Shown: in pieces, positions 1,454 to 20,522 of the stretch
How the letters are laid out: each line of letters starts with the position of its first letter
Numbering within the stretch: position 1 is the stretch's first letter
IMG/VR virus record: IMGVR_UViG_2778261176_000017
DNA length: 43,909 bases
DNA from: a virus
Taxonomy: Duplodnaviria; Heunggongvirae; Uroviricota; Caudoviricetes
Direction: 5' to 3' (one strand)
Notes under the pieces: model-generated
What the model was told of the DNA's origin: nothing
The model's database searches: none
Seen by the model: the letters and a program-made list of their open reading frames with translations, nothing else
Program-made: the position numbers and the translations under genes

Positions 1454-1552
1454 CGCATCACCTCTGGCAGGCGCCAATGTTAGACTGAAATTGACGCCTG
1501 ATGTTGATTATTAATAATCAGCTATGAAGTTTTAATTTGAATACAATGCAAT

Positions 1553-1741
1553 TCACGAGGACTGAAGTTTCTCGCAATTAAAATTTATCAGTTTTACTTT
1601 CTGCTCTCTGGAAACGCCTGCTTCTTTTTTACCTGAGAGCATTTTTTCGCATTCTGATTTCGTTAGTTTAGATTTTGAATATCTTGTCCAGTTAGTAGGA
1701 GTGCCACCTTCCTTTTCAATAGTGGCGGTAATTTTATACAT
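1553..1741 (-). CDS. ydaC: Rac YdaC-like small protein (62 aa)
   Basis: ATG at 1741 preceded by GGAGG at 6 nt spacing; start overlaps the ralR stop by 8 nt. Sequence MYKITATIEKEGG recalled as YdaC. Confidence 0.6.
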   Translation of the reverse strand: MYKITATIEKEGGTPTNWTRYSKSKLTKSECEKMLSGKKEAGVSREQKVKLINFNCEKLQSS

Positions 1742-6009: not shown

Positions 6010-6230
6010 CACCATGACTCCGCCTTTACAGGTAAACCATCACGACCGAGGAAGACTTTAATCATGCGGTCAGTAATGCATGTTTTTGTGGTCAGGTTAC
6101 GAATATATAGTTTTCGCTTTTTAATATTGTTTGCCGAGGCAATATATGTCCGGCCTTCATGAAGAACATAATCGCCAGGAGTCACACACTGACGTGGTAT
6201 TTCATCAGTTCCGAAGTGATGTGCAATCAT
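6009..6230 (-). CDS. kilR: Cell-division inhibitor KilR (73 aa)
   Basis: ATG at 6230. Sequence [35 protein letters not shown] recalled as Rac KilR. Confidence 0.8.
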
Positions 6231-6671
6231 AATTATCTCCATTTTTACAAATGAACTTTGTTGATGCGGTGCCTGGTGCCTCCAGGTGACTGCAACCAGT
6301 TAACAATTACAGTCGGCTTTCCCACCCAAACCAATAAGGACTAACATGACTTTTAACTGTGCCACGTGCGCTTAGCCGCATTCACCGCATCACAAAATTC
6401 ACTTTAAAAAGGGCGGACATCAGCCGAACTTCAAGAAAAAAACTGATGCCGCCAGGACTACACACAGCAATGTCGTTATTTACAACCGGAGGCGCACTCC
6501 CACCATTTAAATTTAACAGACAAGACCGACTCTTTATGGATATCGGAAATGCGCCTTCGTGTTGTGCCCGGTTTTATTTCACCACCTCCGGGCTTCGGTG
6601 GTCTCGGCTATACCCCTACAGCGAGAGCTTGTGTTAACATTTCAATACCCTTACAGTTGAGAGTTATTGAT

Positions 6672-7160
6672 ATGTTGGATGTATTTACTCCATTGTTGAA
6701 ACTTTTTGCTAACGAGCCACTCGAAAGACTTATGTATACGATTATCATTTTTGGTCTCACTCTCTGGCTGATACCGAAAGAGTTTACTGTCGCATTCAAT
6801 GCTTATACTGAAATACCTTGGCTCTTTCAGGTTATCGTTTTTGCCTTTTCTTTCGTGGTCGCCATTTCCTTATCAAGATTGCGAGCACGTATTCAAAAGC
6901 ATTATTCATTACTACCAGAGCAACGAGTATTGCTTCGTTTATCTGAGAAAGAAATCGCTGTATTTAAAGATTTCCTTAAAACAGGAAATCTTATTATCAC
7001 TTCTCCTTGCCGTAACCCGGTTATGAAAAAATTAGAACGGAAGGGCATCATTCAACATCAGAGTGATAGCGCAAACTGTTCTTATTATCTCGTCACCGAA
7101 AAATACTCCCATTTTATGAAGTTATTCTGGAACAGCAGGAGTAGACGTTTTAATCGTTAG
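6672..7160 (+). CDS. sieB: Superinfection exclusion protein B (162 aa, membrane protein)
   Basis: ATG at 6672 inside the longer track ORF. Hydrophobic N-terminal half; sequence MLDVFTPLLKLFANEPLERLMYTIIIFGLTLWL recalled as SieB. Confidence 0.85.
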   Translation: MLDVFTPLLKLFANEPLERLMYTIIIFGLTLWLIPKEFTVAFNAYTEIPWLFQVIVFAFSFVVAISLSRLRARIQKHYSLLPEQRVLLRLSEKEIAVFKDFLKTGNLIITSPCRNPVMKKLERKGIIQHQSDSANCSYYLVTEKYSHFMKLFWNSRSRRFNR

Positions 7161-7312
7161 CTTACTGTGTGCTTCTCCAACCATCGGCGCGCACCAGTTT
7201 CGGTTTTAAATGTTTTGCTTTTTGTATACGTCATCGCGGTGAACGTTCCATCCTGGTTGGGGAACACACCGCACACCAGGGATTCGTTGTTGCCGAGGTC
7301 GATTTTTTGCAT
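7157..7312 (-). CDS. ydaG: Small protein YdaG-like (51 aa; not in the supplied ORF track)
   Basis: Hand translation gives MQKIDLGNNESLVCGVFPNQDGTFTAMTYTKSKTFKTETGARRWLEKHTVS; ATG at 7312, stop TAA at 7159..7157. Confidence 0.55.
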   Translation of the reverse strand: MQKIDLGNNESLVCGVFPNQDGTFTAMTYTKSKTFKTETGARRWLEKHTVS

Positions 7313-7323
7313 TTTGGGAACTC

Positions 7324-7458
7324 TCACATCTTGTTGTTGCGGATAGAGGCTTCTGCTTGCCAGAGATCCCAGTCGTTGCTACGTAAAGCCTGCACAGCCT
7401 GGCTGTAAGTGATACCGCAACAATCCATCAAATACTGAACTACTTCGTAATGCACCAT
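7324..7458 (-). CDS. ydaF: Small protein YdaF-like (44 aa from ATG 7458; the ORF extends to a TTG at 7515)
   Basis: First gene downstream of the predicted leftward promoter. G-rich RBS before ATG 7458. Start is uncertain. Confidence 0.5.
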   Translation of the reverse strand: MVHYEVVQYLMDCCGITYSQAVQALRSNDWDLWQAEASIRNNKM

Positions 7459-7632
7459 CTTTTTTCCCCTTAACGCCGGGTGGCGGAACGTTTTATCTAC
7501 TGCGCTTTGTATCAATCAACAACTGCCGTCATGTTCGTATGCCTCAGGCTGGCTACTTAGCCCTGTTCAGTGGCTGGATAACTCGAGGTATTGTCCTGCC
7601 GTTCTCCGGTGGGGCGTTGTTTGGATATGCTT

Positions 7633-7674
7633 ATTAAACACAAAGGGTTTTCTCGCGTCAACACAAAGTGTGTT
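7633..7674 (-). promoter_or_regulatory. Candidate leftward early promoter (PL-like) with operator palindrome
   Basis: On the minus strand: -35 TTGACG (7661..7656), 17-nt spacer, -10 TTTAAT (7638..7633). Perfect 6-3-6 palindrome AACACAAAGTGTGTT (7660..7674) overlaps the -35; a related half-site AAACACAAA lies at 7636..7645. Confidence 0.35.
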
Positions 7675-7705
7675 TTTATGGTGGCGTGTCATATGATGAT
7701 GGTAC

Positions 7706-7730
7706 AAAAAAAGCCCGCTGATAGCGGGCT
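7706..7730 (-). terminator. Rho-independent terminator downstream of racR
   Basis: Stem AGCCCGC (7712..7718) / GCGGGCT (7724..7730) with 5-nt loop; the A-run at 7706..7712 on the top strand is a U-run following the hairpin on the minus-strand transcript. Confidence 0.6.
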
Positions 7731-7760
7731 GATTGGCATATTACTGTGATAGCAAGATCA

Positions 7761-8180
7761 TTACTCCGGTGGGGGGGTATCTTTAAGCCTGCCCCTCAAA
7801 TATTTTTCTACATACTCGTCGATTTCTTTTAGCCGGACTTCAAATAGCTCAATCATTCGTTGTTGTTCTGAGCCCGGTAGCTGGTTAAACAACTCAAGAA
7901 GTTTTCGTTGGGATTCATTTAACCACAATTCAGAAGAGTCTTTTTCCCCAAAGAGGAGCTCAGGAGGAGATATGCCCAGCGCCTTTCCCAGGACGACAGC
8001 ATCATGCACTCCAACATTTCTGCTGCCCGCCTCATAGTTACCTATACGCGATTGCGTCCATCCGCAGATTTCAGCAAGTTTTCCTTGAGATAAACCAAGC
8101 TTCTGCCTGCGCTCTTTAAGACGCATTGCAATTTTGTCATTGAGCCTACTAGCGGCAATTTTTTCGTTTTCTTTTTCCAT
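7761..8180 (-). CDS. racR: Prophage repressor, XRE-family HTH, CI-like (139 aa)
   Basis: HTH segment LGLSQGKLAEICGWTQSRIGNYEAG. Divergent from the cro-like gene with operator palindromes in the shared intergenic region. AAGGA RBS before ATG 8180. Confidence 0.8.
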   Translation of the reverse strand: MEKENEKIAASRLNDKIAMRLKERRQKLGLSQGKLAEICGWTQSRIGNYEAGSRNVGVHDAVVLGKALGISPPELLFGEKDSSELWLNESQRKLLELFNQLPGSEQQRMIELFEVRLKEIDEYVEKYLRGRLKDTPPPE

Positions 8181-8191
8181 TTCGTCCTTGT

Positions 8192-8253
8192 ATCACGAAT
8201 CGTGATTTATATAAAACACAAAATAGCTTGACCGTAAAACACAAGGTGTGTTT
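8192..8253 (+). promoter_or_regulatory. Divergent immunity promoter/operator region (PR-like for ydaS; racR promoter on the opposite strand)
   Basis: Perfect palindromes ATCACGAATCGTGAT (8192..8206) and AAACACAAGGTGTGTTT (8237..8253). Candidate -35 TTGACC (8228..8233), 17-nt spacer containing the second palindrome, then a weak -10 TTTAAA (8251..8256). GGAGG RBS before ydaS ATG 8277. Confidence 0.4.
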
Positions 8254-8276
8254 AAAATTGTCGTCGGAGGTTTTTA

Positions 8277-8519
8277 ATGAACAAAATTTCAACATATCGA
8301 AAACAACTTGGTCTGTCTCAAAGACAATTCGCTGTTCAGCTAGGGTGGATACAAAGCCGACTGGCAAATTACGAAGCAAATTTTCGTACCCCTGGGCTAG
8401 AGGAGTGCAGAAAAATTGTTTCCACCCTTAATCGGCTTGGTGCTCATTGTGGACTTGACGATGTATTCCCCCCAGACGGTAAGCATAGCGAAAACAGCAT
8501 AGGAGCGGTTGATTCATGA
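8277..8519 (+). CDS. ydaS: Cro-like HTH regulator YdaS (80 aa)
   Basis: HTH segment LGLSQRQFAVQLGWIQSRLANYEA. GGAGG RBS at 6 nt spacing. Divergent from the repressor gene. Confidence 0.8.
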   Translation: MNKISTYRKQLGLSQRQFAVQLGWIQSRLANYEANFRTPGLEECRKIVSTLNRLGAHCGLDDVFPPDGKHSENSIGAVDS

Positions 8520-8938
8520 AAATCAGGCATGAGCACATCGAATCAGTGTTGTTTGCCCTGGCAGCCGAAAAAGGGCAGGCATGGGTAGCCAATGCAATTA
8601 CTGAAGAATATCTGCGCCAGGGGGGCGGCGAATTGCCCCTGGTTCCAGGCAAGGACTGGAACAATCAGCAGAATATCTATCACCGTTGGTTGAAAGGTGA
8701 AACGAAAACGCAAAGAGAAAAAATTCAGAAGCTGATCCCAGCAATTCTGGCAATCCTTCCGCGCGAGCTGCGTCACCGACTCTGCATCTTCGATACCCTG
8801 GAACGCCGTGCATTACTGGCGGCGCAGGAAGCGTTGAGTACGGCAATTGATGCGCATGATGATGCAGTCCAGGCCGTTTACCGTAAAGCATATTTCAGCG
8901 GCGGTGGGTCGCCCGGCGATTCTGTCGTAGTGCATTGA
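8516..8938 (+). CDS. ydaT: YdaT (CII-like / toxic early protein, 140 aa)
   Basis: ATG overlaps the ydaS stop (ATGA). AGGAGCGG RBS. Sequence MKIRHEHIESVLFALAAEKGQAWVANAI recalled as Rac YdaT. Confidence 0.8.
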   Translation: MKIRHEHIESVLFALAAEKGQAWVANAITEEYLRQGGGELPLVPGKDWNNQQNIYHRWLKGETKTQREKIQKLIPAILAILPRELRHRLCIFDTLERRALLAAQEALSTAIDAHDDAVQAVYRKAYFSGGGSPGDSVVVH

Positions 8939-9016
8939 TTGAAATTAATCGTGCCGGACTGTTTTGTTCGGTATCAGTTAAATGTAACGCTTACAGCGTT
9001 ACAAGGTGAAAACAAT

Positions 9017-9805
9017 ATGGCTTCAAACTGGATAAAGCTCGAGGTTATTACGCCGGATAAGCCGGAAATATTCAGGCTTGCTGAGATTCTGAATATTGAT
9101 CCAGATGCCGCATTAGGGAAAGTCATTCGCTTCTGGGCATGGGCGGATCAACAAATGATAGACGGTAACGCAGAGTGTAACGCTCGCGGCGTTACAAAAA
9201 GTGCAATAGATCGCATCACTTTTATGGCTGGTTTTGCTGATGCGTTAATTCAGGTTGGATGGCTGGTCGAAAATAACGGTGGGCTTTCTCTACCTAACTT
9301 TGAACGTCATAACGGAAAAAGCTCTAAAAAACGGGCGATTACAAACGAGAGGGTTACAAAAATACGCGAACTGAAACGAAAAGGTAACGCTGCCAGCGTT
9401 ACACAAACGGATCAAAAAGCGTTACCAGAGGAAGAGGAAGAGGAAGATATAAATACTGATCTCCCCCTAAATCCCCCTCGCCAAAAACGAGCATCTAAAA
9501 AATTCGAGCCGGAGGCTATTGAGTTGCCCGATTGGTTGCCGGAAACACTCTAGCATGAGTGGGTCCGGTTCAGGCAGGCATTGCGAAAACCGATTCGAAC
9601 GGAGCAGGGCGCTAACGGGGCGATACGGGAGCTGGAAAAATTCCGCCAGCAGGGTTTTACCCCTGAGCAGGTGATTCGACACAGCATCGCCAATGAATAC
9701 CAGGGCTTGTTCGCGCCGAAAGGTGTTAGGCCTGAGACGTTGCTCAGACAGGTTAACACCGTCTCGTTGCCGGACAGTGCGATCCCGCCAGGCTTCAGGG
9801 GGTAA
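9017..9805 (+). pseudogene. ydaU: YdaU-like replication gene interrupted by an in-frame amber codon (TAG 9551..9553)
   Basis: Track ORFs 8939..9553 and 9581..9805 are in the same frame, separated only by TAG at 9551..9553. The downstream part has no ATG or RBS of its own. ATG at 9017 has an AAGGTG RBS. Whether a reference YdaU reads through this position was not verified. Confidence 0.5.
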
Positions 9806-9811
9806 CGAACC

Positions 9812-10558
9812 ATGAAAAATATTGCGACAGGCGGCGTTCTAGAACGCATCCGCCGACTGACCCCGCCACATGTAACCGCCCCATTCAGAACGGTAGCGGA
9901 GTGGCGCGAGTGGCAACTTGCTGAAGGCCAGAAACGTAGCGAGGAGATCAACCGCCTGAATCGCCAGTTGCGGGTGGAAAAAATTCTGAATCGCTCAGGC
10001 ATCCAGCCGTTGCACCGTAAATGCTCGTTTGCGAATTACCAGGTGCAGAACGACGGTCAGCGATACGCGTTGAGCCAGGCGAAATCTATCGCTGATGAAC
10101 TGATGACCGGATGTACAAATTTTGCGTTCAGCGGAAAACCTGGTACCGGAAAAAACCATCTGGCGGCGGCTATCGGGAATCGTCTGCTGAAAGATGGCCA
10201 GACAGTGATTGTGGTTACCGTGGCTGATGTCATGAGTGCTCTACACGCCAGCTATGACGAAGGGCAATCAGGCGAAAAATTTTTGCGGGAACTGTGCGAA
10301 GTGGATCTGCTGGTTCTTGATGAAATTGGCATTCAGCGCGAGACAAAAAACGAGCAGGTGGTACTGCACCAGATTGTTGATCGCCGGACAGCGTCGATGC
10401 GCAGCGTGGGGATGCTGACAAACCTGAACTATGAGGCCATGAAAACATTGCTCGGCGAGCGGGTTATGGATCGCATGACCATGAACGGCGGGCGATGGGT
10501 GAATTTTAACTGGGAGAGCTGGCGTCCGAATGTCGTCCAGCCAGGAACTGCGAAGTAA
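9812..10558 (+). CDS. ydaV: DnaC/IstB-like replicative helicase loader (248 aa)
   Basis: Walker [16 protein letters not shown] and Walker B-like LLVLDEIG; position after the initiator gene. Confidence 0.85.
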
Positions 10559-10580
10559 TTTTTATCGGGAGGAAATTTTA

Positions 10581-11342
10581 ATGGAGACTGTTTTTGACGC
10601 ACTGAAAGCAATGGGAAAAGCCACATCCATAGAACTTGCTGCGCGACTTGATATCAGTCGTGAAGAAGTGCTGAACGAACTATGGGAACTGAAAAAAGCT
10701 GGTTTCGTTGATAAAAGCGCGTACACCTGGCGTGTGGCTGATAACAACGTTCAGCAGGAACAGCCAATGCAGGCAGAACTGCCGGAAGAAACCACCACGG
10801 CAACAGTAGCGAAAATCTCAGAGTGCGATTTAACCGCGACGATTGAACAACGTGGACCACAAACGGCGGATGAACTGGCTACGCTGTTCGGTACCACATC
10901 CCGCAAAGTTGCTTCAACGCTGGCTATGGCAATCAGCAAAGGACGCCTGATTCGCGTAAATCAGAACGGTAAATTTCGTTACTGCATACCGGGCAATAAT
11001 TTACCAGCAGAGCCGAAAGCTGCATCGGTAACGGAAACTGATTTTAAAGCCTTTCCTCAGCCAGCAGGTTTTGCGTTGCCGTTACAGAAAGATGCAACAC
11101 AGGAAGATATTAAAACAGAAACTGTGGCGGACATTGTGCAGTCGCTGCCATCGTTTACCGAAACGTGGGTGGATGACCTGATTTTACCATCGCTGCACAT
11201 GGCAAACCGTGAGCTGCGCCGGGCGAAAAATCATGTCCAGAAGTGTGAGCGTGTCTGCGCCGCGCTGCGGGAGCTGAACAAGTACCGGGATATTGTTCGA
11301 CAGATTGTCGACTCCTCCAGTCGTATTGTGTCGGAAAAGTGA
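10581..11342 (+). CDS. Hypothetical protein (253 aa), possibly YdaW-like, predicted winged-helix domains
   Basis: GGGAGG RBS at 10567..10572 before ATG 10581. Charged helical N-terminus resembling a wHTH; no catalytic motif recognised. Confidence 0.55.
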
Positions 11343-11357
11343 TTGCCGGAGGCGCTT

Positions 11358-11780
11358 ATGGCAAAAGTTTTTACACAGGAAGAGCGTGAAAAAATTAAGG
11401 AGCAGGTTGTTGAGCTGGTACGCCAGAGTGGGCGCGAGACGTTAAGGCAACTGGAGGCCAAGACAGGTGCGACAAGATATCTGATGAGCATTCTTGCCAG
11501 AGAGTTGGTTGCCAGTGGCGATGTATACAACTCTGGCTATGGGTTATTTCCCTCTGAACAGGCTCGTAAGGACTGGAAAAACGCCCGCAAAAAACTATCC
11601 AGGGCAAAGGTGAAAAAAACGGTTGTGGTTGATCCTGACCTTATCTGGTCATTACCAGACGGAGAAATACGCCGCTATGACAGGCGTATGAACATAATCT
11701 GTCGCGAGTGCCGGAAGAGCGAAGTTATGCAGCGTGTGCTGGCATTCTATCAGGGGCATTTTCAGGGGGCGGCGCAGTGA
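11358..11780 (+). CDS. Hypothetical protein (140 aa)
   Basis: GGAGG RBS 5 nt before ATG 11358; follows directly after the preceding gene. No recognisable motif. Confidence 0.5.
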   Translation: MAKVFTQEEREKIKEQVVELVRQSGRETLRQLEAKTGATRYLMSILARELVASGDVYNSGYGLFPSEQARKDWKNARKKLSRAKVKKTVVVDPDLIWSLPDGEIRRYDRRMNIICRECRKSEVMQRVLAFYQGHFQGAAQ

Positions 11781-12108
11781 GCAGGATTGGCTACCAGGAG
11801 TTGACCGCGCCAATGCCTTCCTTGCCGAAGTTCGGACGTGGGCGTTTAACGAGCTTTGCACGGCGTTTGACAGGCACGGAATGTTCGCTGGCCTTGATGG
11901 CAACAACGCCGTGACACATAAGCCACATAAAAGAAGTGATAAATGCGATGCTGCATTGCTCGGAACAACTTCATAAAGGAAGCGTCTGATGAGGGCAATA
12001 AAAGCTCATACAGAATTGCTATCTATTAGGACACAGGATATCAGATGAGATTACATTCCACCAATAACCAAGAAAATTACATAAGACAATAAAAATAGAT
12101 GATAAAGA

Positions 12109-12137
12109 TTGTAAAAAGCCTATCAATTTCATATGAT
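12109..12137 (+). promoter_or_regulatory. Candidate sigma70 promoter for the methyltransferase operon
   Basis: -35 TTGTAA (12109..12114), 17-nt spacer, -10 TATGAT (12132..12137), about 45 nt upstream of ATG 12183 in an AT-rich intergenic region. Confidence 0.35.
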
Positions 12138-12182
12138 TCTCGATTAGATTCATAGTATACATGATGGAATGGAACGCATAAA

Positions 12183-13223
12183 ATGAAAGCAATTGATCTT
12201 TTTTGTGGCGCTGGTGGTTTGACAGTTGGTCTAAAAATGGCTGGCTTTGATGTCATATCAGCAATCGAAAAAGAAGCTATTGTATCTGAAACCTATAGAA
12301 TCAACCATCCGGATGTTAACTTAATAAATGGGGATATAAAAAATATATCACCAGATGAATTAATGAAACAATTAAAAATTCAGCAAGGTGAACTGGATTT
12401 GTTGGCAGGTTGTCCACCATGTCAAGGATTTTCTTCGTTAAGAACAAAAAATAAAACAGTAGCTGTCTTTGATGAGAGAAATGAACTTATTTTTAATTTT
12501 TTAGATTTTGTTAAAGTCTTTTTTCCAAAAGTTGTAATGGTTGAAAATGTACCAGCTTTGGCATTTGACGAACGAATAAACATGTTTACTTCGGAGCTTA
12601 AGAAATTGGGTTATCATATCGATGATAATTCAGTTTTAATTGAAGATGCTAGTAAATTTGGTGTGCCACAAAGACGTAAGCGCATGGTACTACTTGCTTC
12701 GCGATACGGAGAGCTTACTCGTGCTCAAAAAAATAGTAATTTAATAACTGTGCGCGATGCAATAGGCCATTTGGCTCGACCTGAAAATAGCAATGATCCG
12801 CTGCACAATATATTAGAAAGAAGAACTGAGAAGGTTAAAAAAATTATAAGTCTTATTCCTAAGGATGGGGGAAGCCGCTCTCAACTTCCTTACGAGTATT
12901 GGCTGCCATGTCATAAACGATATCCAAATGGTTTTCGCGATGTTTACGGTCGTATGAGGTGGGATGATGTAGCTCCAACTATTACGAGTGGATGTACTAA
13001 TCCTTCAAAAGGTCGTTTTTTACATCCTGAACAAGATAGAGCAATAACTCTTCGAGAGGCTGCATTATTACAAACTTTTCCGAGTGATTACTATTTTCCT
13101 ATTCAATTTGGTAAAGACAAGGCTGCTTTGATGATAGGGAATGCATTGCCCCCTGAATTCATTAAGCGTCATGCTGAACTTATCAAAGAACATATAACTA
13201 AAAACGAGGCGGATTATGGATAA
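12183..13223 (+). CDS. DNA (cytosine-5)-methyltransferase (346 aa)
   Basis: Conserved m5C-MTase motifs read directly: DLFCGAGG (SAM binding), PPCQGFS (catalytic Cys), ENV, QRRKR, GNALP. Visibly AT-rich coding sequence. Confidence 0.9.
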   Translation: MKAIDLFCGAGGLTVGLKMAGFDVISAIEKEAIVSETYRINHPDVNLINGDIKNISPDELMKQLKIQQGELDLLAGCPPCQGFSSLRTKNKTVAVFDERNELIFNFLDFVKVFFPKVVMVENVPALAFDERINMFTSELKKLGYHIDDNSVLIEDASKFGVPQRRKRMVLLASRYGELTRAQKNSNLITVRDAIGHLARPENSNDPLHNILERRTEKVKKIISLIPKDGGSRSQLPYEYWLPCHKRYPNGFRDVYGRMRWDDVAPTITSGCTNPSKGRFLHPEQDRAITLREAALLQTFPSDYYFPIQFGKDKAALMIGNALPPEFIKRHAELIKEHITKNEADYG

Positions 13224-18150: not shown

Positions 18151-18226
<76 letters not shown>

Positions 18227-18229
18227 TAT

Positions 18230-18304
<75 letters not shown>

Positions 18305-19080: not shown

Positions 19081-19296
19081 ATGAAATCCATGGATAAGTT
19101 AACAACAGGTGTCGCCTATGGCACCTCCGCAGGCAGTGCTGGCTACTGGTTTTTACAGTTGCTCGATAGAGTCACGCCCTCACAGTGGGCAGCAATAGGT
19201 GTGCTGGGTAGTCTGGTGTTTGGCCTGTTGACGTATCTGACAAATCTTTATTTCAAGATTAAAGAAGATAAGCGTAAGGCTGCACGGGGAGAGTAA
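19081..19296 (+). CDS. Class II holin / pinholin, phage 21 S-like (71 aa, dual-start MKSM)
   Basis: Sequence [28 protein letters not shown]...[14 protein letters not shown] matches recalled S21 pinholin; two TMDs with charged C-terminus. Confidence 0.85.
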
Positions 19297-19300
19297 TTCA

Positions 19301-19645
19301 ATGACTCAAAACTATGAACTGATTGTGAAAGGGATCCGCAATTTTGAGAATAAAGTTACGGTAACTTTAGCGTTACGGGACAAAAAACGCTTTGACGGTG
19401 AAATTTTAGACCTGGACATCTCGCTGGACCGTGTTGAAGGTGCCGCGCTGGAGTTTTATGAGGCAGCAGCCAGAAGGAGCATCAGACAGGTCTTCCTGGA
19501 TGTTGCTGCCGGGTTATGTGAAGGGGATGAGCAGTCACCGGAAAAGCGCCCCATAATTTTAGAGGCGCAGGGTGTGTGGATAACCTACAAAGGAAAACTG
19601 CCGGGAAGAATTACTGGTTCACTGAAGACTCCGCCGAAATGGTAA
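19301..19645 (+). CDS. Hypothetical protein (114 aa) inserted between holin and endolysin
   Basis: ATG 19301 lies 5 nt after the holin stop, with GGGAGAG RBS. No recognisable motif. Confidence 0.5.
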   Translation: MTQNYELIVKGIRNFENKVTVTLALRDKKRFDGEILDLDISLDRVEGAALEFYEAAARRSIRQVFLDVAAGLCEGDEQSPEKRPIILEAQGVWITYKGKLPGRITGSLKTPPKW

Positions 19646-19883
19646 TTTCACCAGCATATTTTTCTTCCAGTAATACCGCCAGCCACTTGAAAGAATTTTG
19701 TTGTTGCTGGGACCATTTGGGGTTGAGTGATTCAAGCTGGAGCGATGCCAGTGTTGGTTGCATTTGTTCCTTGGGAATTGAGAATGCCAGATATGAAAAT
19801 GCGACAGTAAGGGCATTTACATCATCCCGAAGCTTGGAAATGCAGTCGAGCAACTCCTGTAGAGAAATGGTGCTATTGTCCAT
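19611..19883 (-). CDS. Hypothetical protein (90 aa), convergent with and overlapping the preceding ORF
   Basis: ATG at 19883 with AGAGAGGA RBS 6 nt upstream on the minus strand. The 3' end overlaps the plus-strand ORF by 35 nt. Confidence 0.4.
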   Translation of the reverse strand: MDNSTISLQELLDCISKLRDDVNALTVAFSYLAFSIPKEQMQPTLASLQLESLNPKWSQQQQNSFKWLAVLLEEKYAGEITISAESSVNQ

Positions 19884-19988
19884 AAACAATCCTCTCTATT
19901 GTATTTAACTATTCCTTGCCTGATTCAACAGGCCGGGACAGATAAACATATCCAGGGTTCAGAAACCGATAAATCCTGATAAATATCC

Positions 19989-20522
19989 ATGAACGCAAAA
20001 ATCAGATACGGCCTGTCGGCTGCCGTTCTGGCACTGATTGCCGTCGGTGCGCCTGCGCCTGATATTCTCGACCAGTTTCTGGATGAAAAAGAAGGTAACC
20101 ACACAACGGCATACCGCGATGGTTCCGGTATATGGACCATCTGTCGTGGTGCCACAATGGTGGATGGTAAGCCCGTCATACCGGGAATGAGGCTGTCGAA
20201 GGAAAAATGCGACCAGGTTAACGCTATTGAACGTGATAAGGCGCTGGCATGGGTGGAGCGCAATATTAAAGTACCACTGACCGAACCACAGAAAGCGGGT
20301 ATAGCGTCATTTTGTCCCTATAACATTGGCCCCGGTAAGTGTTTCCCGTCGACGTTTTATAAGCGGCTGAATGCCGGTGATCGTAAGGGTGCATGCGAGG
20401 CGATTCGCTGGTGGATAAAAGATGGTGGGCGCGATTGCCGCATACGTTCAAATAACTGCTATGGACAGGTTATTCGTCGTGACCAGGAAAGCGCATTAGC
20501 CTGTTGGGGGATAGATCAGTGA
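19989..20522 (+). CDS. SAR endolysin, T4-lysozyme-like muramidase (177 aa)
   Basis: N-terminal signal-anchor-release segment [18 protein letters not shown] followed by a lysozyme catalytic region (E...D...T within [24 protein letters not shown]). Partner of the pinholin. Confidence 0.85.

Follow-up and report, generated by a model that had tools for sequence, protein, structure and literature searches.

The window, by which we mean the whole stretch of 43,909 nucleotides analysed here, constitutes a full-length lambdoid prophage of the Rac family from E. coli, which starts at intR adjoining ttcA. Its genes include recET, kilR and sieB, a cI/cro-like pair, ydaT, a replication-initiator gene and ydaV, together with a methyltransferase gene, genes for tRNA-Thr and tRNA-Gly, lysis genes, trkG and a complete head and tail set. 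The initiator gene, which is broken by an amber codon, is presented with its associated features in table 1. The gene preceding it in cII position (8516-8938) matches the Pfam family YdaT_toxin with E 3.4e-11 and carries conflicting labels, namely 'activator protein cII' in one GenBank prophage record and 'toxin YdaT family protein' in RefSeq. The ydaV gene that follows is intact, 100% identical to that of the closest relative and equipped with its own Shine-Dalgarno sequence (AGGGGG at 9797-9802). Further downstream, the two tRNA genes, tRNA-Thr(TGT) and tRNA-Gly(TCC), lie at 18151-18304, upstream of the lysis genes, and neither of them is a suppressor.

Table 1. Coordinates, in the window, of the initiator gene, its internal stop, the neighbouring loader gene and the putative binding sites
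Feature	Position	Strand	Remarks
Replication-initiator gene of Rac-family prophage, ydaU position	9017..9805	+	262 codons, broken at codon 179; full-length match to PHROG 2509; CDS intact in relatives
Amber codon TAG, in frame	9551..9553	+	Base 9552 is A, G in relatives (TGG, Trp179)
Part still translated, 178 aa	9017..9550	+	Winged-helix-like N-terminal domain (~aa 16-91), basic stretch, acidic run, linker
Untranslated remnant	9554..9805	+	Encodes three-helix bundle resembling the DnaT C-terminal domain, and tail ...PDSAIPPGFRG
Shine-Dalgarno AAGGTGA	9003..9009	+	7 nt 5' of ATG 9017; read from sequence
Palindrome TGTAACGCT-N3-AGCGTTACA	8983..9003	.	Adjoins the ribosome-binding site; putative initiator-binding site; kept in relatives
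Half-site GTAACGC (9165-9171) and palindrome TGTAACGC-N5-GCGTTACA (9176-9196)	9165..9196	.	Inside the gene
Palindrome GTAACGCTG-C-CAGCGTTAC (about 9384-9403) and half-site GCGTTAC (9419-9425)	9384..9425	.	Just 5' of the GAA/GAG run
ydaV, DnaC-type helicase loader	9812..10558	+	NCBIfam PRK12377, E 5e-153; DnaC, E 7e-92

The two open reading frames that cover this locus, 8939..9553 and 9581..9805, share a single frame on the plus strand with the ATG at 9017. Translation of 9017-9805 gives 263 codons, of which TAG is the sole internal stop and TAA at 9803-9805 the terminal one; coordinates and translation therefore agree with the initial annotation, which had considered this TAG the only interruption of a common frame. 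The true start is ATG 9017, and homologues are annotated from the equivalent ATG with a CDS of 789 nt. The same annotation had stated that the downstream part lacks an ATG and a Shine-Dalgarno sequence of its own, and this also holds: the earliest in-frame codon of start type beyond the TAG is TTG 9581, which is preceded by weak AGG triplets alone (9572-9574 and 9576-9578), while the ATG at 9555 belongs to a different frame.

Are these then two genes or one? A chance adjacency of two open reading frames is ruled out by the intact frame of 262 codons in the homologues, along with the near invariance of Trp179. A separate downstream gene is ruled out too: among the homologues examined, none has a natural end at the position of the TAG or a separately translated downstream gene, and a start at TTG 9581, besides being without a proper Shine-Dalgarno sequence, would fall inside the first helix of the C-terminal domain described below. 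Given that four homologues aligned at the DNA level are uninterrupted over all 262 codons, the view of the locus as one gene carrying a nonsense codon is confirmed, and in place of two genes it should be annotated as one pseudogene, interrupted where the codon for Trp179 has become amber.

With regard to the origin of the stop, a query of 1 kb found full-length matches in 679 complete genomes of E. coli, the best being that of strain Z0117EC0056 with 99.9% identity. Codon 179 is TGG in all four DNA-aligned homologues (99.9% to 94% identical), which comprise Z0117EC0056, two other E. coli strains and one GenBank prophage record; the earlier expectation that intact homologues would probably have TGG as the sense codon is thus borne out in every one examined. 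When the window is compared base by base with Z0117EC0056 (CP098201), the G-to-A change at 9552 constitutes the sole difference over positions 8235-10924 (2.7 kb), and the flanking SNPs lie at 8234, 10925 and 11070, that is approximately one per 1-1.5 kb. Since the 252 bases 3' of the TAG are 100% identical to those of this intact relative, and nothing else has changed over the same 2.7 kb, the mutation must be very recent. An alignment of 20 protein sequences, extending down to 53% identity, shows the motif LW.EWV.FR, in which Trp179 hardly varies, and the TGG version of a 26-mer including this codon is present as an exact pattern in two GTDB representative genomes. The alignments show, at the level of sequence, that a G-to-A transition at 9552 turned a conserved Trp codon, TGG, into TAG.

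A 61-mer centred on the TAG, which would seed on any genome carrying the TAG within a 28-nt exact context, matched 38 complete E. coli genome records among the 5,426 genomes searched, none of them exactly; such a test is able to detect common alleles, because a control 61-mer on the unrelated stop of rcbA returned 576 exact matches. The 26-mer with TAG is likewise missing from GTDB species representatives, from IMG/VR and from JGI metagenomes. The exact product of 178 aa is recorded from a single contig, NLOS01000026.1 of the draft assembly GCA_002230055.1, which matches the window at 100% over 6017-12553, and exact-sequence look-ups returned no independent assembly having this product. On the evidence of these searches, the allele is private to one strain and very recent; being confined to one assembly, it shows no sign of selection or spread.

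An allele recorded from one draft contig and found nowhere else searched, and differing by a single base from a relative of 99.9% identity, could also be an error of sequencing or assembly, the strain truly having TGG and the A at 9552 being a miscall of the draft consensus. We consider this improbable. Real SNPs with respect to Z0117EC0056 occur every ~1-1.5 kb in the flanks, a spacing that makes one further SNP at 9552 unremarkable, and in other strains the initiator gene has frequently been broken by independent events. Miscalled substitutions are rare in a consensus assembly when set against real SNPs, and no other gene of the window has a private stop or frameshift that would hint at poor assembly. 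Hence, an assembly error is less likely than a real SNP.

The rest of the prophage conforms to this picture. Among the 49 CDSs of the relative Z0117EC0056, 48 are matched over their full length in the window, and in-frame stops are found only in the initiator and in rcbA; because the other CDSs are full-length and free of private stops, the prophage looks otherwise intact and its assembly not ridden with errors. These full-length CDSs rule out both a prophage in overall decay and a deficient assembly, the rcbA stop being a common natural allele. The latter gene (1532-1741, minus strand) differs at base 1555 and ends at TGA in codon 63, where Z0117EC0056 reads AGA and continues for another seven codons; the exact 61-mer of the short allele occurs in 576 of the 1,785 matching E. 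coli genomes, and to judge from these genomes the stop is a natural length polymorphism, not decay. The 49th CDS, the lysozyme gene rrrD, is replaced by a divergent gene: the region 19283-20517 of the window is swapped with respect to 20505-21010 of the relative, whose rrrD is only 32% identical to the 177-aa ORF at 19989-20522. Such an endolysin replacement is a typical mosaic swap of lambdoid phages.

If the amber codon is real, it could still be read through, either by a host suppressor tRNA or by a leaky UAG-C context, at a level that supplies replication with sufficient full-length initiator. A UAG with C as its next base is reportedly a comparatively weak terminator in E. coli, so the context of this stop would be favourable; moreover, initiators are needed only in small amounts, and the coding sequence 3' of the TAG is still perfect. 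However, an intact 3' sequence is equally expected from a very recent mutation, the stop is absent from every relative and collection searched, and amber suppressors are rare in natural E. coli isolates. A suppressor tRNA encoded by the prophage itself is ruled out, as the only tRNAs of the window are tRNA-Thr(TGT) and tRNA-Gly(TCC) and no CUA anticodon is present. Programmed readthrough or another form of recoding is ruled out as well, because the stop is conserved in no relative, TGG being present in all those examined. Dependence on amber suppression, one of the consequences that had been listed for this gene, thus found no support in the tRNAs of the 43.9-kb window or in the allele searches, and readthrough sufficient for replication appears to us very unlikely.

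We have considered the make-up of the protein with a reconstructed sequence of 262 aa having W at position 179. The reconstructed protein matches PHROG 2509, 'replication initiation protein', with E 3.4e-89, its residues 1-262 aligning with profile positions 1-277 of 277. No Pfam family was retrieved at E<=1, DUF1376 (PF07120) and Phage_rep_O included, and K-12 YdaU, used as positive control, matched PF07120 with E 2.7e-26. The C-terminal 123-124 aa align to K-12 YdaU by BLASTP and hhalign, with 81% identity over 124 aa, whereas the N-terminal 138 aa have no similarity to YdaU or DUF1376 by Pfam, BLASTP or hhalign. The original description of the gene as ydaU-like is consequently right for its position and its C-terminal module, and wrong for its N-terminal domain, which is not DUF1376; in the NCBI annotation, the DNA homologue of 94% identity is labelled 'phage replication initiator YdaU family protein'. 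The same synteny of ydaT, initiator and ydaV in a Rac-type prophage is found in CP098201 and DH1. On comparison of these sequences, the gene is a mosaic allele at the ydaU position, in which a different N-terminal module is combined with the same C-terminal module.

The C-terminal module is related also to DnaT. Residues 170-262 match the C-terminal domain of DnaT in phmmer searches of the PDB (2ru8, E 9.8e-5; 9zbt_D, E 3.3e-4), and initiator and DnaT have in common a nearly identical tail, VNTVS.PDS.IPPGFRG. The NCBIfam model for DnaT (NF002770) scores 16.3 bits, involving only the last 19 residues, against a curated cutoff of 201, which rules out that the initiator is a DnaT orthologue. In the preprimosome, the C-terminal domain of DnaT, which is preceded by an acidic linker, assembles into filaments on the ssDNA of the lagging strand (PMC13377028).

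Structural information was taken from the AF2 model of the homologue P0001, which is 98% identical to the initiator. In this model, residues 16-91 are predicted to form a helical domain with a beta-hairpin, residues 96-160 to be disordered, and three helices (H176-188, H196-211 and H216-225) to form a bundle, with pLDDT of 80-90 over residues 161-230; W179 falls in the helix 176-188, the first of the bundle. When the whole model was compared with the PDB by Foldseek, no hit was significant (best E 0.67) and most of the weak ones were winged-helix regulators; for this reason the assignment of the N-terminal domain as a winged helix is tentative. The acidic run E138-D144 in the disordered linker is encoded by nt 9428-9448.

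Independently damaged copies of the initiator are frequent in public assemblies (P0077, P0086, P0100, P0105, P0108, P0067 and P0079), their lesions consisting of frameshifts, truncations and one internal in-frame deletion; most of them lose the C-terminal module, breaking near the GAA/GAG run for the acidic linker (window 9428-9445). In many copies from E. coli and Salmonella, namely P0013 and ~45 similar entries of 374-380 aa, but not in that of the window, the disordered linker is lengthened by 114 aa inserted after the acidic run and ahead of the DnaT-like domain. These extra residues match no Pfam family, and their motif RIDIVVTD...GIELDRNSPRQK recalls a PD-(D/E)XK nuclease; they may represent a domain, selfish or accessory, acquired by insertion.

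What, then, would the N-terminal domain recognize? The heptamer GTAACGC occurs at 13 sites in the 43.9-kb window, where 3.4 would be expected, and eight of these sites are concentrated in 8984-9425, in and just before the initiator gene. The positions of the sites are conserved in relatives. The K-12 ydaU gene has no GTAACGC site and has instead a different repeat, AAGCAGATGTTCAA, in five copies. Because the type of repeat covaries with the type of N-terminal domain, it would seem that this domain reads the repeats within its own gene, which suggests, by analogy, a binding like that of lambda O at ori-lambda. The cluster at 8983-9425 is probably the replication origin of the prophage together with its initiator-binding sites, and the segment 9384..9425 probably represents the core of this origin. 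The position of the first palindrome, adjoining the ribosome-binding site, hints at autoregulation. Every palindrome and half-site of the cluster lies upstream of the TAG and is untouched by the mutation.

From these elements, we infer that the intact initiator would work in two steps. Its N-terminal domain, probably of winged-helix type, would bind the GTAACGC palindromes in and before its own gene; through a long disordered linker, basic and then acidic, it would be joined to the DnaT-like bundle which, with the IPPGFRG tail, would act on the unwound origin DNA in concert with the DnaC-type loader YdaV, the two proteins then loading the DnaB of the host. In the mutant, translation ends after Leu178, when only three residues of helix 1 have been made, and the whole C-terminal module is lost. 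The resulting fragment of 178 aa would probably still bind the origin, while being unable to perform the C-terminal step, and the prophage is predicted to be incapable of autonomous replication after induction. In phage lambda, an amber mutation in gene O renders the phage replication-defective unless it is suppressed. Such mutants, and the part played by the C-terminal domain of DnaT, make a replication defect the likeliest outcome by analogy. Of the consequences first proposed for the lesion, truncation of the protein and defective replication of the prophage are the likely ones. Premature termination 250 nt 5' of ydaV could additionally reduce the expression of this gene by polarity, although ydaV has its own Shine-Dalgarno sequence. 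GenBank records of 'phages' that carry the same replication module are prophages delineated in silico and not virions, and thus provide no proof that the module works in virions.

The explanation we favour, with good confidence, is that a single initiator gene had its Trp179 codon changed to amber by a G-to-A transition, leaving a fragment devoid of the C-terminal step and a prophage that is probably defective in replication: a case of ordinary gene decay. An alternative view would be that the truncated fragment has a kept or new function, for instance as an origin-binding repressor or as a dominant-negative factor against superinfecting relatives, or else that a split protein is produced by reinitiation at TTG 9581. 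The fragment does retain the linker and, in full, the predicted DNA-binding domain, all putative binding sites are 5' of the stop, and several other broken copies (P0086, P0108, P0077 and P0100) have likewise lost their C-terminal part but not the N-terminal one. Yet the allele is private to one assembly and without sign of selection, while the other truncations group near the GAA run, which is prone to slippage, and for this reason have a mutational explanation; as to a split protein, TTG 9581 has no proper Shine-Dalgarno sequence and would start translation inside helix 1. A functional fragment or split protein would accordingly be most surprising. Even slimmer are the chances of one specific version of this idea, namely that the fragment is kept for its capacity to sit on the GTAACGC origin sites of related phages as they enter the cell, whose replication it would then block, thereby conferring superinfection immunity; were it true, immunity by interference with replication could explain also why other broken copies keep their N-terminal part.

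Seen as the product of ordinary decay, the TAG is a nonsense mutation of recent date in the replication gene of a prophage; its mechanism is already known, and the finding matters little beyond annotation. It does imply that, despite the intact look of its other genes, this Rac-type prophage has to be counted among those probably defective in replication, and the combination of a single-base lesion with an isogenic intact relative offers a possible natural control for studies of the replication module. This module has been little studied, and our search of the literature on ydaU and ydaV found no functional study of the initiator. Two side observations sharpen its definition beyond the names present in databases: the initiator combines, as a mosaic, an exchangeable N-terminal domain, which would bind the origin, with a DnaT-like C-terminal module, and the GTAACGC palindromes mark a probable origin within the initiator gene.

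The closest known counterpart of the gene is ydaU of the K-12 Rac prophage, coding for a DUF1376 protein, which lies in the same slot, flanked by ydaT and ydaV, of a Rac-type prophage located at ttcA and has a partner loader, YdaV, of the same type. The C-terminal 124 aa of the two proteins are 81% identical and have in common the tail IPPGFRG as well as the Trp that is mutated in the window. They differ in the N-terminus, which is DUF1376 in K-12 and here a sequence of 138 aa unrelated to it by BLASTP, hhalign and Pfam, and in the repeats within the gene, GTAACGC palindromes in place of the AAGCAGATGTTCAA repeats of K-12; moreover, of the two genes only that of the window carries an interrupting amber codon.

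The layout of the locus is also that of lambda O and ori-lambda, in gene order, in-gene repeats and two-part protein. The lambda initiator gene follows the gene in cII position and precedes that for the helicase loader, contains repeated binding sites in its own coding sequence, and encodes a protein with an N-terminal DNA-binding part and a C-terminal part. There is, however, no detectable homology between the two initiators (no Pfam Phage_rep_O match), the partner loader is a DnaC-type AAA+ protein instead of lambda P, the C-terminal domain is DnaT-like, unlike that of lambda O, and the putative binding sites are palindromes instead of the four direct 19-bp iterons of lambda.

The third system to which the initiator can be compared is DnaT of the host, whose C-terminal domain (PDB 2ru8, 6aep and 9zbt) aligns, at residues 92-179, with residues 170-262 of the initiator. 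Both have a three-helix bundle, which for the initiator is predicted, with an acidic linker ahead of it. The initiator differs from DnaT in being phage-encoded, in having a different N-terminal domain and in its mode of recruitment, since it would be targeted to the origin and not brought in by PriA/PriB.
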